IMG/VR virus record: IMGVR_UViG_3300037067_013225
Coordinates: 96,001-160,000 of that record
Strand: one strand, 5' to 3'
DNA: 64,000 nucleotides
Origin: a virus
Lineage: Duplodnaviria; Caudoviricetes
Each line of letters opens with the position of its first letter. The first letter of the stretch is position 1. Shown here piece after piece: positions 10,379 to 54,410 of this stretch. A model generated the notes under the pieces. It was not told where the DNA came from, did no database searches, and worked only from the letters and a program-made list of their open reading frames with translations. A program made the position numbers and the translations under genes.

Positions 10379-13300
10379 TGGCTACACCTAACACGATTAC
10401 GGTTAATCCGCAGCAAAGCGTTCTCTTTAACGGGGCCAAAAGTTACGACAATGATTACGGAGATCGTGTTGTAAAATACGAATATTTAGTCGGCTCTGTC
10501 GCTCAGGGATTATTTAATACACAATGGATAGATCTGATACCAGATCAATGGTATAATAATGGAAATGTTGCCACATGCGAAATTAAATTTATCGCATCTG
10601 GCACTTCATATGTTTCACTTCGCGTGACAGATTTTTATGGCGCAAAATCCATACCCGATACTATAACGGTAAATATATCTGGTGAACCCTGGGTTAATCA
10701 ATCGCCCGTAGCGAATCTAGTTTCGGATATTTATTCTGGATTCGCTCCCCTTATAGTACACTTGGATGCATCTGGTTCCACACCACCAACGGCAGATATT
10801 AGTTATGGCGATTCTATTGACAGATATGAATTCGATAGTGATATGGGCTTTTCATCTAGCGTTACAACATCGCCCACGGCAACCTTTTCATTCCCCGTGC
10901 ATGGTACTTTTCATCCGAGTGTCAAGGTTTATGATTCTTTTGGGTTGACTGATACGACCAGCATTACCATTGAAGTGTATGAGAACCACACACCGGTTGC
11001 GAATTTGGTAGTTTCTCCCAACAATGTGTCAGCGCCGCAAACGGTCACTTTAGACGCTTCAGGCTCTACTCCTCCCGCAATAGACATCCCTTATGGTGAT
11101 TATATTGCGAGGTATGAGTTTGATGTTGATGGATCGGGTTATGTTGATTATGGGATCACAAATATCATTACGCATTATTATGATATCTCAAACATTTATC
11201 ATCCGAAAGTTCGTGTTACAGATTCTATGGGCTTGACGGATGAATTTACCGCTACATTGAATTTATATCCCGCTAATATAGCTCCCAATGCGGTGATAAC
11301 AACCATACCAGCGCCACCAACAGGTACAAGTCCGTTAGAAATCGTATTCGATGCCTCCAGCAGTAATGATACTGATGGAACAATAGTTAAATATGAGATG
11401 GATTTTGACGATGGTGCGGGTTATAGGGATTTCGGCTCCAATGATGGTTCTGATGGTAGTATCCGTCATACTTATATAAATCCATCTGGGCCAATTTCTA
11501 TCACATATACGGCTGTTTTGCGTGTTACGGACAATGGCGGTTTAACTGATACTGCAAGCGTGATGATTGTTGTTGCGCCGGTAGTCAATACTCCCCCTTC
11601 GGCGATCTTGACATCCGATGTTTCATCCGGTTTGGTACCACTAACGGTAACATTTGATGGTTCAAAAAGTTATGATACTGACGGATATATTGTTTCATAT
11701 CAGTGGGATTATGAGAATACTGGTGTTTTCGGTTTACCTACTGATTCTATTACATCTTATACATATAATGCCGCAGGAACATACTTTGCATTGTTAAAGG
11801 TTACTGATGATGATGGAGCCACAAGCGTAGCTTTGCTTACAATTACTGTTAATACTGATACTAATTTGTCACCTGTGGCAGATTTGCATATTTCACCATC
11901 ACAATCCAGTGCAGTAGTTCCATTTGCTGCACAATTAGATGCGGGTTCTGGTCCTTGGGGTGTCGGCTCATATGATCCTGATGGTACGATAGCAAAATAT
12001 GAGTTTCAGACTGGTGATGAGGGGGATATATGGCATGATCAGGGTACAACACCCATTTATCCTTATACTTATTTAAATGCGGGTATTTTTACAGCCAAAG
12101 TGCGTGTCACGGATAATGATGGTGCTCAATCGATAGCCTCTGTAAGTGTTCAGGTTGGTATTAGAAGCGTTGCAGGTACTTTTTTGGCGACGAAAACAGA
12201 GCTTTCCGGGGCTGAATATCACTATGTAGTTAACCAGGATCTAGATATTTTACTCGGTCCCAATTCGGATTCGGGGAATCCAGTAAAATTTCACGAAATT
12301 ACCAGTTCTGGATATTGGAAAATTATAACGTTAAATAATATCGCATCCCTAAGATATACCTCAAATTTTAATAATTATCAAACGATTCCATTAAATTTTA
12401 TCAATAATGGTGCTCGATATACACCAAATTCTGGAATTATTATCGGCAGCGCCACTTATATGTTCGTTTTGCTATCTGTACCGGGATTTTCTGGTAAAAC
12501 TTTTATTACGATCCCTGGTGGCTGGTCTAAATCAATTTGGGAAGTTTTGAACGTTAACAAACAGTCCGGATACGAATTTATGTTCCCTCGTAAACATGGA
12601 AATAGAATATATCTGACATGCAAAATTAAGGCTGGGGATTTATCTAGCGGATTTAGTGGATCTGATACATACAAGATAGTTGCATTTTTGGATACAGGTT
12701 TATCCAATACCTCTGTTCCCATGACCATAGATTGCACTCTTAAATGGCCTTACAAAAGCCTGAGTCCGTTTTGGAAGATGCCTGTAGGTGGGCAGCGTGT
12801 TAGAGCGACAGATGCATTGGGTAATTTTTATACCAATAGCGATATAATGTATTCTGATTGGTCAGAATCTTATCATAATAGTAACATGACTATTTGTTAC
12901 GATACCGATGGTGCTTATAAGTGGCATTTTGATTTGGCACAATATTATTATGATTATTATGCAGCATTAGGTATACCGGATGGTGAAAATCCCATAAATC
13001 ACTACTACAATGGGGTTGCCGATGTATATAGCTTTAGAAAGGAAGATAGGCGCATACACGACAGAAATATCTCCAATATAAGAATCACTGCATCGGGAGA
13101 CATATTAGTTTATGGGATATCTTGGTGCAGTTCGTTTGATGTTAATGAGGTAAATTCTATTTATGGACCATACAAATTAGTAACTTATTGTTTGAATCCA
13201 GACGGTACCCTTAAGTGGATTTCTGAGCATGCATCATTCTACAGATATGATCCCAGTGCATATCCTGACGTTAATGCCTCAAAAAGAACCGGTGCATGGG

Positions 13301-17492: not shown

Positions 17493-17517
17493 TTTGATAA
17501 AATCATGAGGGTTTACA

Positions 17518-19641
17518 ATGGCTAATCAGGCGAATCGGAGTGTACCATCGGTTTATACACAGATTATAAGTAAGATTAATTACAATACTGCACCTCTAAG
17601 CGATGTGATTGGTATTGTTGGTCCAACGGCTAATGGCCCTCTAGAAACAGTAACTACCACAAGCAATCCCACCGATGCGCTCAATACCTTTGGCGCTTGT
17701 CGTTTGACGAATCAGGCATTTGCAGCTTGGGCGGGCGGCGCAGGGACTATTAAGATTGTTCGTATTGGTGGAACTGTTTGTTTTGATTCTGTCCTTTACG
17801 GTGATAACGATTCTCCAGACGCAACGCTCTATAATATTACCAATTTTATGTGCCGTCGAAACGATATGTCCTCGTTATATGATTTCTATGATACTGTAAG
17901 TGGACAATTTTCTCCTTCGATGGTGGATGCTTTTGGTTCCATTGTATCCGATCATGGCGATGTTATTTTTGCGATTTCTAACACCATGTTTGATACTCTT
18001 GATTTTGTATTTCCTACCGCAGTCCCATCTGGTACGATCATTCGTATAGCATATTATAACGCAGATACGCTACAAACTGCCAATCAATTTGCCGGATATA
18101 CTGCTATTCCTGGAATAACGTTAGATGATGTTGCTCAGTTAAACAATGCACTAAATATTTCCGGTTTGACATCCACTCATATTGAATGGGATGTGGCTGA
18201 TATGCCGGATTGGGAGCAGGCTACATTTACAGATTCCGATGGACAGACGCATTCCGGATATGCTGTGGCTATTTGGGCAGATACCACTTCCGCAGGAGAT
18301 GAATTCGATATTAGCCGGATTTGTCAGCGTATTGGTGCGGAGGGTTCATATCATGCATGGCATCAGGCAACATATGCCTCCAGTGGCATTGTTAATGGTG
18401 CAACCACCAATGAAGTATTTATGCTTACTAGCAAAAATGCATCTTCTGACGCTATTACTGTTGAGACACGTCTTGTTGGGCCGAAAATCTACCTTACTGT
18501 TACTCGTACAGATTCATTAGGTGTTGTAACCACTGAAGAATATACGGTATTGCCGGTATTTGATGCACTTACATCGACATATTCCTATACCACGGAAGAT
18601 CTAATCGACGAGATCAATGAAACATCCGTAATTGTAACGGCAACAGATCTCAGCACCACTTTCGCAATGTTTGGTTGGGCAACACCCACAACTGCGGTGA
18701 CAACCACATTGTTGGGTGCTAGTGCGTCACCCTCATCCATCACCTTGAAGGACTACGCTCGCGGATTGGCCCTGATAGCTCGTGAGGCTGATATTTATTG
18801 GGTTCTTCCTTGTATTGATGATAACTCTATTCAGAATGTTTCCGGTTATACTGATAATGCTAAATTCCTAGCCATCATGCAGTTGTTTTATACGCATGTT
18901 ATCAATATGTCTGTGGGGCTGAATCAGAAACCACGCGTATTGATGTCTTGGTTGAGTCCTGGGTATCAGAATGTAGGTACTATCGGTAACTCGAATCTAA
19001 ACATTAAATCTGGTAGTTCCAGGCGCATTGGTGCTAGTGAACGTAACGTATATTTCGTACAGAAACTTGGATTCTATGAACTTGAGGCAAGCGGGTCTCT
19101 GACATATCGGAGAGAATATTTGGCCTCATATACTGCCGGATTGCTGTCTGCATTGAATGCTGCCGATCCTGCTACTCGCGATTCTCTAGGTGTGGGTAGT
19201 GTTGATTATGCTTATGATGCGGATGAAATGGAGATCCTAATTCGCAATGGTGTATTTGCATATCAGGATGTTCCGGGTATTGGCGTGTGTGTTGGTAAAG
19301 CCATCACCTCAAAATTGAGTGATGCACGTTCCGCCGTAACTACGACTCGTGTAGCGGATCGAATTGCCATTGATATGACTGCGTTATTGGAACGACGTTA
19401 TATTGGTCGTGCGCGCGAAACCGGTGTTACTGAGGAAATTAAGCGTGATGTAGCTTCATATCTGACTTCCAAGATTGCTCCTGCCGCGATTGGCGGGCTA
19501 ATTGATGCTTATGATAGTATTATTTGTTACCCTGATAGTAACAATGCAAACAAAGTTATTTTGTCTTATAAGGTACAAGTCAAGGGCGATCTTGATTTTA
19601 TTGATCAGACGGTGTATCTGACAACTAGCGTTAGCAGCTAA
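17518..19641 (+). CDS. Contractile tail sheath protein
   Basis: N-terminus VPSVYTQI...IGIVGPTANGPLETVTT..NPTDALNTFG; C-terminus EMEILIRNGV...TTTRVADRI...RYIGR...DLDFIDQTV. Confidence 0.85.
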   Translation: MANQANRSVPSVYTQIISKINYNTAPLSDVIGIVGPTANGPLETVTTTSNPTDALNTFGACRLTNQAFAAWAGGAGTIKIVRIGGTVCFDSVLYGDNDSPDATLYNITNFMCRRNDMSSLYDFYDTVSGQFSPSMVDAFGSIVSDHGDVIFAISNTMFDTLDFVFPTAVPSGTIIRIAYYNADTLQTANQFAGYTAIPGITLDDVAQLNNALNISGLTSTHIEWDVADMPDWEQATFTDSDGQTHSGYAVAIWADTTSAGDEFDISRICQRIGAEGSYHAWHQATYASSGIVNGATTNEVFMLTSKNASSDAITVETRLVGPKIYLTVTRTDSLGVVTTEEYTVLPVFDALTSTYSYTTEDLIDEINETSVIVTATDLSTTFAMFGWATPTTAVTTTLLGASASPSSITLKDYARGLALIAREADIYWVLPCIDDNSIQNVSGYTDNAKFLAIMQLFYTHVINMSVGLNQKPRVLMSWLSPGYQNVGTIGNSNLNIKSGSSRRIGASERNVYFVQKLGFYELEASGSLTYRREYLASYTAGLLSALNAADPATRDSLGVGSVDYAYDADEMEILIRNGVFAYQDVPGIGVCVGKAITSKLSDARSAVTTTRVADRIAIDMTALLERRYIGRARETGVTEEIKRDVASYLTSKIAPAAIGGLIDAYDSIICYPDSNNANKVILSYKVQVKGDLDFIDQTVYLTTSVSS

Positions 19642-51979: not shown

Positions 51980-52008
51980 AGTATACCACGAAATCGCGTT
52001 AAAGTCAA
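51980..52008 (-). promoter_or_regulatory. Sigma70 promoter TTGACT-N17-TATACT (extended -10) giving a leaderless mRNA
   Basis: -35 at 52008-52003 and -10 at 51985-51980. The ATG at 51973 is the 7th base after the -10, and there is no SD. Confidence 0.8.
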
Positions 52009-52010
52009 GT

Positions 52011-52035
52011 AAAAAGGGCCGGTTTCCCGACCCTT
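52011..52035 (-). terminator. Intrinsic terminator
   Basis: Minus strand AAGGGUCGG-GAAA-CCGGCCCUUUUU. Confidence 0.85.
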
Positions 52036-52205
52036 CGACTTTCTCGCCTATCTTGCGAAGTAACCCCTTGGGTACTTTTCAGCGGAAAAGAACCTTCTGG
52101 CACTCATACTGGGTTTCTGCAACGTTGGTGCCGCGTTCGCAGGTTCCCAAATCCGTTCTACGGCCAATGATCGGTTGGTTGGAATATCCCACGGATTCCT
52201 CGTAT
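52011..52205 (-). ncRNA. Unidentified structured RNA of about 195 nt
   Basis: Bounded by a consensus promoter and a terminator; GC-richer than its surroundings; several helices and a GGCAC/GUGCC pseudoknot. Confidence 0.65.
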
Positions 52206-52211
52206 GCTCAG

Positions 52212-52240
52212 ATTATACCACAATTAGACGCCAATGTCAA
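52212..52240 (-). promoter_or_regulatory. Perfect-consensus sigma70 promoter TTGACA-N17-TATAAT with extended -10
   Basis: Minus strand TTGACA TTGGCGTCTAATTGTGG TATAAT. Confidence 0.9.
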
Positions 52241-52252
52241 GCGTTACAGGCA

Positions 52253-52411
52253 TCATTCTGTCTCATCCCCAGAATCAGCGTCATGTACGACAAGATTTTC
52301 CCATTGCCCACTGTGACAGAATTCACACTCTATATATAGTTGGGTTTGTGGTACATGTCTAACGTTATTAAGTTGCAAAAACAAAATATTATGTCCGCAT
52401 GGCGATAGCAT
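52253..52411 (-). CDS. Small ORF not in the track (52 aa, MLSPCGHN...IECEFCHSG...ETE), possible Zn ribbon
   Basis: Translated by hand; starts 1 nt after the nrdJ stop. Confidence 0.5.
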   Translation of the reverse strand: MLSPCGHNILFLQLNNVRHVPQTQLYIECEFCHSGQWENLVVHDADSGDETE

Positions 52412-52412
52412 T

Positions 52413-54410
52413 TCATTGTGCATATGGATGTCCGTATTTATTGATATATTCTGCGCTAAAATTATACTGATATTCTGGATCTAAATCTGTTGGATATTTA
52501 TCGAACAAAATAATTCCTACACGGCCCTCATTTCGTTGAACATAGATAGAGCAGCCCTTTAAGTTATGTTCATATGCGGCAATATATATTTTCTCTATTT
52601 CTGCCGGTGATGCATTATTCTCGTTAAGATTATATGTTACAGACACAGATGCATCGATCCATTTCTGAATACCTTCCATGAGGGATATTTTTTTGCGCCA
52701 ATTAATTTCATGTGCAACTTTGCATTCTTTTTTTGTGATTGCGGAATCCATTAATGCGATTTTTTCTTGGTCGGTAGATAATAGTTCCGGATCTATTCCG
52801 GTGCGTTCTAGGACAATTTGCCGTGCCACAGGATGTAAAATCAGTTGCCAGCGCCATTCATAGGGATAATTTTTCGGCACCACTCTAGTTCTGCGATAGT
52901 ACCAAGTATCCATGATTGGCTCTACTCCTGATGACGACTTCAATATGATTGATCCCGTACCAACAGGAGGTATTGTCAAACAACATACATTTCTCATTCC
53001 GTATTCGAAATCGCTATATTGGAACGTACCAGAATCGATTAAATGTTTCATAAATCCGGATTTAAATATCGGATGCTGAGAAATGACGTGCTTGGCTCTA
53101 TCAACTTTCCACAAACACCACGGTTTTCCATGAGATGATATAGTAGAATCATCCCATGCCGGATATGGTTCACGTTCTTTAGCCAACTTAATACTCTGTT
53201 TATACGCACCGATACACATTGCGCGAGTTAATTGTTCCGCGATATCGCATGCGCGATCTGAATCGTAAGCTATTCCACAGCGCAATAGATAGTCGGCTAG
53301 CCCGGTATATCCTACGCCAACACGACGCAATGCTTCTAAATCCTTGCGCTGTATAACTGTGGGACAGCGATCATCTCTAAGCTGGCAGGATACCGTGTTA
53401 TCTAGGAAATGTAATATTTCTCCCGCACGTGATTCTACCAACACCAAGGCTTTATCAAGATCGATTGGAAGATCGGCTAGATTAATATTGGATAACACAC
53501 ATGACGATCCATTTGATAGGATTTCCTCCGAGCAGCCATTAACCGATGCTATAGGATATCCTATGGCATCACTGTTGGACATGCGTTGTGATGTAGACCA
53601 ATATAATAACCCAGGTTCAGCATGTTCGTATGCATTCTGGGCGATTAGCTTCATTAATTTGCGTGCTTTAATAGTTTTGTATATTTTGTTGTCGAAGGTT
53701 AGATCCCATGTTGCGTTCTTTTTATACGCTTCGAAAAATGCATTGCTTATTTTTATGGAAATGTTAGCGGATTGAATTTTAGTATAGTCGCTTTTAACCG
53801 TAATAAATTCTTCTATATCGGGATGATTATCGTCAATGCATAATAGAAGCGCGCCGCGCCTATTGTGCGCGGCGATCAATCCGGTTGTTTGACTAAATAG
53901 TTGCATCCATGAAACCGCACCGGTGGAGGTTTTTGCCGCATTGTGTGTGGGTGATCCAGCGGGACGTAGAGCGGTCATGTCATAGCCAAGCCCTTCTCCG
54001 CGAGAACTGACTTTGGCGGTAATATATGCGGCTTCAAATATCCCTTCTAATGAATCTGCCTCTATGGGATCTCCGTTTCTATCTACGCCCAATGCGAATC
54101 CGGTGCAATTAATTAGAGATGTTTTGTCGGTATTTCCTGCACCATATATGATGCGTCCACCCGGAATAAATTCGCGATTGAACATCATTGAAAACCATTT
54201 TAGAGCCTTGGCCTGTTGTGAAGCTTTGTCTGGCTCTACTGATGCTATATATGTAGCTATACGCCAAAATACTTCGCCGGGAGTTTCTTTTGTTCCATCG
54301 GGCTTATCTAGGGCATATTTGCGATTAAATACATCTATTGCAAATTGATCGTGATTGAAATATTCTTCCGTTGTGATTGCTATTTCTGTCGGTTGCGATT
54401 GCTGTGTCAA
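52413..54410 (-). CDS. nrdJ: Class II (adenosylcobalamin-dependent) ribonucleotide reductase, catalytic subunit
   Basis: FIPGGRI, SLINC, GAVSWM, RRGA, HPDIEEFITVK, ANISI, AEPGL, NGCSE, SCVLSNINL, RRVGVGYTGLAD, QKWIDASVSVTYN, LKGCSIY. An NrdJb-like gene is nearby and no nrdB is in the window. Confidence 0.85.
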   Translation of the reverse strand: MTQQSQPTEIAITTEEYFNHDQFAIDVFNRKYALDKPDGTKETPGEVFWRIATYIASVEPDKASQQAKALKWFSMMFNREFIPGGRIIYGAGNTDKTSLINCTGFALGVDRNGDPIEADSLEGIFEAAYITAKVSSRGEGLGYDMTALRPAGSPTHNAAKTSTGAVSWMQLFSQTTGLIAAHNRRGALLLCIDDNHPDIEEFITVKSDYTKIQSANISIKISNAFFEAYKKNATWDLTFDNKIYKTIKARKLMKLIAQNAYEHAEPGLLYWSTSQRMSNSDAIGYPIASVNGCSEEILSNGSSCVLSNINLADLPIDLDKALVLVESRAGEILHFLDNTVSCQLRDDRCPTVIQRKDLEALRRVGVGYTGLADYLLRCGIAYDSDRACDIAEQLTRAMCIGAYKQSIKLAKEREPYPAWDDSTISSHGKPWCLWKVDRAKHVISQHPIFKSGFMKHLIDSGTFQYSDFEYGMRNVCCLTIPPVGTGSIILKSSSGVEPIMDTWYYRRTRVVPKNYPYEWRWQLILHPVARQIVLERTGIDPELLSTDQEKIALMDSAITKKECKVAHEINWRKKISLMEGIQKWIDASVSVTYNLNENNASPAEIEKIYIAAYEHNLKGCSIYVQRNEGRVGIILFDKYPTDLDPEYQYNFSAEYINKYGHPYAQ

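Follow-up and report, generated by a model that had tools for sequence, protein, structure and literature searches.

A promoter-terminator unit of about 195 nt beside nrdJ in a large uncultivated phage: a candidate orphan small RNA

Background

What does a phage make from a stretch of some 195 nt that begins at a perfect promoter, ends at a strong terminator and lies between two ORFs? The question is raised by a 230-bp segment of a phage record of 202,677 bp (39.9% GC). The window, which is the whole 64-kb stretch of DNA that was analysed, covers bases 96001-160000 of the IMG/VR record. Positions given here are those of the window unless they are called genome coordinates. The minus strand carries all the genes that surround the unit (Table 1). 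It lies between a 56-aa ORF, which overlaps the stop of the class II ribonucleotide reductase gene nrdJ, and a gene for an HD-type phosphohydrolase. An earlier sequence-only reading had taken it for a stand-alone, pseudoknotted RNA. That proposal has several parts, and they do not stand or fall together. There is the transcription unit itself, its fold, its coding potential, and what its product would do.

Table 1. Features at and around the 195-nt unit, in window positions unless genome coordinates are named
Feature	Position	Strand	Remark
Class II ribonucleotide reductase core nrdJ, 665 aa	52413..54410	-	
56-aa ORF	52253..52423	-	overlaps nrdJ stop; upstream of the RNA promoter
230-bp segment, promoter to terminator	52011..52240	-	between the 56-aa ORF and the HD gene
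Sigma70 promoter TTGACA-17-TATAAT with TG (extended -10)	52212..52240	-	12/12 consensus match
Predicted 195-nt transcript	52011..52205	-	ends placed by consensus spacing
Candidate 37-codon GTG ORF	52079..52192	-	GAGG 5 nt upstream (GAGG-AATCC-GTG)
Hairpin nt 57-96 (UGGG/CCCA, CUGC/GCAG, AACG/CGUU)	52110..52149	-	sole robust internal helix by thermodynamics
Intrinsic terminator, GGGUCGG/CCGGCCC stem with AA/UU extension, GAAA loop, U5 tail	52011..52035	-	
HD-gene promoter TTGACT-17-TATACT with TG	51980..52008	-	10/12; overlaps the terminator tail
HD_4 / SpoT-like metal-dependent phosphohydrolase, 197 aa	51380..51973	-	leaderless start; downstream of the RNA unit
TSCPD-domain partner of nrdJ, 183 aa	49422..49970	-	
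Leaderless promoters, examples	29949, 37981, 65156, 66852, 163089, 190702 (genome coordinates)	+	
Leaderless promoters, examples	187547, 186416, 148008, 88298, 29436, 28126, 24275 (genome coordinates)	-	

Results and discussion

A self-contained transcription unit

The sequence-only reading had described a perfect sigma70 promoter with a start near 52205 and a GAAA-capped terminator that ends at 52011. Both are there. The -35 box lies at 52240-52235 and the -10 box at 52217-52212, and the whole element (52240-52212) agrees with the consensus at every one of its 12 positions and has the TG of an extended -10. Such perfect promoters are found 9 times in the genome when about 0.1 are expected from its composition, and relaxed sigma70 sites 42 times when 21 are expected. 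The transcript start was placed 7 nt past the -10 and the end was placed in the U-tract of the terminator, both by consensus spacing. The terminator (GGGTCGG-GAAA-CCGGCCC and then T5, the T-run being 52015-52011) is worth -13.2 kcal/mol. It is predicted to form at a probability of 0.94-1.0 in the ensemble of the full transcript. It belongs to a GNRA-capped class that is common to at least 8 further terminators and is found at many gene ends of the genome. The unit is also GC-richer than the genome, as had been claimed (51.8% vs 39.9%), which puts it at the 99th percentile among 195-nt windows.

The next gene was said to have a promoter of its own, and this is borne out by a TTGACT-17-TATACT element at 52008-51980. 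From its -10 it is 6 nt to the ATG of the HD gene, and no Shine-Dalgarno (SD) sequence precedes this start. The same arrangement recurs elsewhere in the genome. A count of promoters with an ORF of 40 codons or more that starts 5-7 nt past the -10 gave 13 of the sigma70 type, each with an ATG at that distance, and their ORFs have 59-296 codons. Leaderless mRNAs that start at host-type promoters are therefore systematic in this phage. Since the HD gene has its own promoter, is leaderless and has no SD, reading through the terminator would not express it.

Because the promoter and the terminator belong to phage-wide classes and the HD gene is served by a promoter of its own, we argue that 52205-52011 is a self-contained unit of about 195 nt. 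This part of the earlier proposal holds at the sequence level and is well supported by these signals. On the upstream side there is no terminator between nrdJ with its 56-aa ORF and the RNA promoter, so the terminator of the unit would also end the nrdJ operon.

The HD protein matches phrog_990 (E 1e-24), and its relatives carry PF13328. The nearest of them, from Lachnospiraceae MAGs and various phages, share only 31-35% identity with it; there is no relative above 35% identity among 5.8 billion clusters or in IMG/VR. The product is a free-standing HD_4 hydrolase of the SpoT/RelA kind and of the small alarmone hydrolase type. Its substrate during infection may be (p)ppGpp or a related nucleotide signal.

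A cassette specific to this phage

The HD gene is followed by a tightly coupled run of small genes, the last of which is the TSCPD-domain partner of nrdJ. The nrdJ core and this partner are separate ORFs in this phage clade, and in all the relatives they are nearly adjacent. The nrdJ relatives are 44-56% identical and include a complete phage of 220,861 bp. None of them carries what is found here, a cassette of about 2.4 kb that splits nrdJ from TSCPD and consists of the 56-aa ORF, the RNA, the HD gene and four small genes. Since nrdJ is followed almost directly by TSCPD in the relatives, we take the cassette to be an insertion peculiar to this phage. In 5.8 billion clusters there is no relative of the 56-aa ORF. 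Several of the related nrdJ genes have intein or LAGLIDADG domains (PF14528, PF14890), which the copy in the window does not have.

The unit resembles a moron, an insert in a phage genome that comes with a promoter and a terminator of its own. The unit has both of these, it lies in an insertion between genes that are adjacent in relatives, and its GC content is unlike that of the genome. It differs from phage morons in what it carries, which seems to be an RNA or a peptide no longer than 37 aa and not a normal protein gene, and in that it sits inside the larger 2.4-kb phage-specific cassette.

The locus is present in two further assemblies (Logan contigs) that are both 100% identical to it, and three independent assemblies agree. 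The sequence-only reading had proposed that homologues be collected, but the collections searched hold none besides these identical copies. A blastn search with 551 nt against 50,697 phage records found no homologue of the RNA, and BLAST of the RNA against the related 220,861-bp phage was empty. Exact and partly degenerate patterns were scanned against viral, metagenome and genome contigs (one pattern in the last). Only two matches came out, each a single 21-mer. They were rejected as homologues since their flanks are unrelated, and they are put down to chance. A covariance model made from the RNA sequence alone matched only the RNA itself in the phage, and it matched nothing in the 220,861-bp relative or in four other loci.

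Known RNA families

The sequence-only reading had been unable to match the RNA to the 6S, tmRNA, SRP, glmS, SAM-I or cobalamin consensus. A cmscan-type check against Rfam came back empty. Rfam 15, which includes 6S, tmRNA, SRP, RNase P, Y RNA/YrlA, riboswitches, ribozymes, HEARO/omega RNA and T-box, gave 0 matches at the gathering score across the whole window. When the limit was relaxed to E<=10 on the locus, the best hits reached 11-16 bits (E 5-9), where the thresholds are 34-70, and they fall mostly on the terminator. The RNA had been said not to be a tRNA, and ARAGORN agrees, since it found neither tRNA nor tmRNA in the window. The one tRNA of the whole genome is a tRNA-Lys that lies outside the window. 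The phage genome holds no paralogue of the RNA.

One can imagine the unit as the RNA half of a type III toxin-antitoxin pair. The layout is similar to ToxI systems in that a promoter, a non-coding RNA and a terminator are followed by a protein gene. However, a repeat scan found no tandem repeat scoring at least 30 in the unit, and ToxI has tandem direct repeats that the cognate toxin processes. The protein encoded downstream is here an HD hydrolase whose gene has a separate promoter, not an endoribonuclease of the ToxN/AbiQ type. A sponge of the CsrA type was considered too, and it was rejected because the 5 GGA motifs in 195 nt are unremarkable when about 4 are expected from composition.

The predicted fold

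The sequence-only reading had listed a set of pairings, including a pseudoknot, as evidence for a defined architecture. All of them are present at the positions given for them, but they are not above chance when dinucleotide shuffles are used for comparison. A perfect 7-mer complement is present in 38% of the shuffles. There are 15 complementary 5-mers in the RNA vs 11.4 expected (P=0.23), and complementary 5- to 8-mers as a whole occur at chance frequency. The proposed nested structure has an energy of -48.1 kcal/mol vs -62.3 for the minimum free energy structure, which makes it 14 kcal/mol worse. The proposed 5-bp pseudoknot would contribute about -6.9 kcal/mol, so that the gap stays open. 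Three of the proposed helices (AUAC/GUAU, the 7-bp AAUCCGU/ACGGAUU and UCGC/GCGA) have ensemble probabilities of 0.01-0.05.

The fold that dominates instead has a closing helix in which nt 4-13 pair with nt 140-150, at a probability of about 0.8. Inside it the hairpin of nt 57-96 stands out (z = -2.3 when nt 55-100 are scored), with pair probabilities of 0.76-0.92 in the two outer helices and 0.34-0.77 in the inner helix. The RNA as a whole has a folding z of -1.64, but this is due entirely to the terminator, since the core (nt 1-167, terminator removed) has a z of 0.0. The ensemble of the core is also more diffuse than that of the shuffles (mean base-pair distance 56 vs 35, z = +1.9). The fold is thus neither stabler nor better defined than that of shuffled sequence, which is what one would look for in a structured ncRNA in general.

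A core z of 0.0, a diffuse ensemble and complements at chance level leave a defined tertiary architecture an unsupported hypothesis, to which the thermodynamic modelling of a single sequence lends nothing. We argue that the pseudoknotted architecture should not be reused as evidence. What is left is a clean promoter-terminator unit with no coding signal.

Does the unit encode a protein?

The sequence-only reading had pointed out a 37-codon GTG ORF behind a GAGG, and the ORF is present at 52192-52079. Its frame is open from the start of the transcript to nt 124, with the stop at 52079-52081. One can imagine a scenario where the unit is a one-gene moron that encodes a 37-aa protein from the GTG at 52192. 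In GAGG-AATCC-GTG an SD and a start do stand at the spacing that is proper for a small protein, and the arrangement resembles genuine phage starts such as GGAGGAACACATG. Of the four further short promoter-terminator units that the genome holds, three encode proteins of 56-77 aa. This makes the 37-aa gene a serious rival to a non-coding RNA.

The coding statistics speak against it, however. They were obtained with a three-periodic second-order Markov model trained on 142 long ORFs of the phage. In this model real genes have a mean of +0.12 bits/codon and spurious ORFs nested in real genes have a mean of -0.20. The GTG ORF scores -0.165 bits/codon, and the ORFs of the other two frames are much alike with -0.13 and -0.14. 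The likelihood ratio of coding to spurious is about 0.12 and the score lies in the bottom 3% of real-gene chunks, to be read with the low power of 37 codons and with the skew in codon usage that a foreign or recent origin would bring. A simpler codon test agrees with the Markov model on this ORF. In the same model, small genes in the other short units come out positive. The GC3 of the ORF is 0.58 vs 0.32-0.37 in the two neighbouring genes.

The layout of the ORF counts against it as well. Its start codon is GTG. It would leave a 13-nt leader and a 3' UTR of 68 nt, when the 3' UTRs of the coding units are 0-25 nt. The dominant predicted fold hides the SD and the GTG in the closing helix of about 10 bp described above. 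The peptide has 0 homologues in 1.84 billion representative proteins, and a protein language model recognised it no better than shuffled sequence. Neither frame-specific coding statistics nor conserved homologues of the peptide therefore mark it as a gene, and we consider a 37-aa gene unlikely, although it is the alternative that survives best. An 87-aa ORF on the plus strand (52053-52316) was also rejected, as it is antisense to all the neighbouring genes and has a low codon score.

Going by its sequence, the unit is more likely non-coding than coding. We prefer this view because its promoter and terminator are typical of the phage, because the downstream promoter is independent and leaderless, and because none of its frames shows a coding signal.

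A by-product of transcriptional control?

A short RNA can also be what is left over when transcription is controlled. In lambdoid phages the PR'-tR' region has a constitutive promoter, a short non-coding stretch and an intrinsic terminator ahead of genes on the same strand, and it yields the lambda '6S' RNA and StxS (PMC7547250). In Stx phages the short RNA StxS has gained trans-acting sRNA functions (PMC7547250). The 195-nt unit has the same layout, in that a strong constitutive promoter is followed within about 200 nt by a strong intrinsic terminator with genes on the same strand beyond it. There is even a -10-like TGGGATATT at about +15 to +23, as read from the sequence. Other versions of the idea are that the RNA is an attenuator or riboswitch leader, or that the terminator is simply that of the nrdJ operon and insulates the HD operon. 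The lack of a terminator between nrdJ or the 56-aa ORF and the unit fits the last of these.

The difficulty is that the HD gene does not depend on read-through, as it has its own promoter and is leaderless and SD-less. In the lambdoid scheme the genes beyond tR' need read-through. No Q-type antiterminator was detected either: families PF06530 and PF03589 gave no match in searches whose controls worked, and PF06323 gave none in a search without a working positive control; an antiterminator of an unrelated family may still be encoded. There is no sequence or Rfam similarity to the lambdoid RNAs, and the genome is that of a 203-kb uncultivated virus that is not lambdoid. For a terminating riboswitch or leader one would expect a conserved aptamer, with a terminator and an antiterminator that exclude each other, beside the ORF that it regulates, but no riboswitch or leader family matched even at E<=10, and the ORF downstream is leaderless. 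If the 3' arm of the terminator is left out, a pairing of -10.6 kcal/mol between the 5' arm and nt 32-42 becomes possible, which is how an attenuator might switch. However, this pairing is long-range (about 130 nt) and of a kind that any sequence offers, and the terminator forms at a probability of nearly 1. We argue that an RNA made only in the course of such control is improbable.

A proposed orphan small RNA

The explanation that we favour, at about even odds, is an orphan early phage sRNA. The segment would be a stand-alone, moron-like unit that makes a non-coding RNA of about 195 nt. The non-coding reading is favoured by the high GC content of the segment and by the unit at genome coordinates 18038-18355 of this phage, which is also without an ORF. 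It is weakened because the core folds like shuffled sequence, because there is no homologue, and because three of the four other short units code for proteins.

If this is the right explanation, the host sigma70 RNA polymerase would read the unit early, from the consensus extended -10 promoter. A consensus promoter and a strong intrinsic terminator would give a discrete and probably abundant RNA, provided that it is transcribed and stable. The RNA would be insulated from the HD operon, which would restart at its own promoter as a leaderless mRNA. Transcription that runs in from nrdJ and the 56-aa ORF would stop at this terminator as well, and the unit would then be the 3' end of that mRNA too. 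Most likely the RNA would be a trans-acting sRNA, a regulator or a sponge, with a host RNA or protein as its target. Its acting parts may be the stable hairpin of nt 57-96 and the open, purine-rich nt 151-166 beside the terminator. A rigid pseudoknotted fold is probably not its mode of action. Like an sRNA of the Hfq type it has a terminator with a U5 tail, but its complementarity to the phage genome is limited to chance 10-12-mers.

A kind of object to which such an RNA could belong exists. Studies of virulent Pseudomonas phages by dRNA-seq and ONT-cappable-seq have reportedly found short phage-encoded transcripts of no known family. The RNA described here would be the same kind of object, early and made from a host-type promoter. 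The Pseudomonas transcripts rest on transcript mapping, whereas the 195-nt unit is defined by sequence signals. The unit would then be a new orphan example of a phage-encoded small transcript, a kind already known. If the predicted transcription takes place, the little-explored set of RNAs of large uncultivated phages grows by one orphan sRNA.

One can also imagine that the unit is a non-functional relic, a promoter and a terminator carried in by the cassette with decayed sequence between them. The whole nrdJ-to-TSCPD cassette is unique to this phage, and no conservation, fold signal or coding signal was found for the unit, which is what decay would leave behind. Yet mutation would easily have destroyed the 12/12 promoter and the strong terminator and here both are intact and perfect, about 94% of the genome is covered by ORFs (by a crude greedy ORF map), and three independent assemblies are identical across the locus, so we regard a relic as quite improbable. 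It is a long shot that the RNA founds a new functional class of phage RNA, for example one that is made at high dose from the consensus promoter and titrates, as a decoy or a sponge, an RNA-binding or defence protein of the host. It would then belong to an accessory cassette together with the SpoT-like HD hydrolase, and it would have a fold that nearest-neighbour thermodynamics misses.

Other short units in this phage

Two of the other short promoter-terminator units, at genome coordinates 12270-12625 and 17515-17845, are single-gene units for proteins of 73 aa and 77 aa, and each has a consensus promoter and a GNRA-capped terminator. In the first of them the next promoter begins on the T-tract of the terminator, the same layout as at 52011/52008. 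The unit at genome coordinates 18038-18355, which lies outside the window, is a promoter-terminator unit of about 270 nt with no ORF of more than 26 codons. Its sequence is unrelated to that of the 195-nt unit, and it can be regarded as a second candidate ncRNA. It adjoins a near-duplicate promoter at 18369 that drives a Cys-rich protein of 56 aa.
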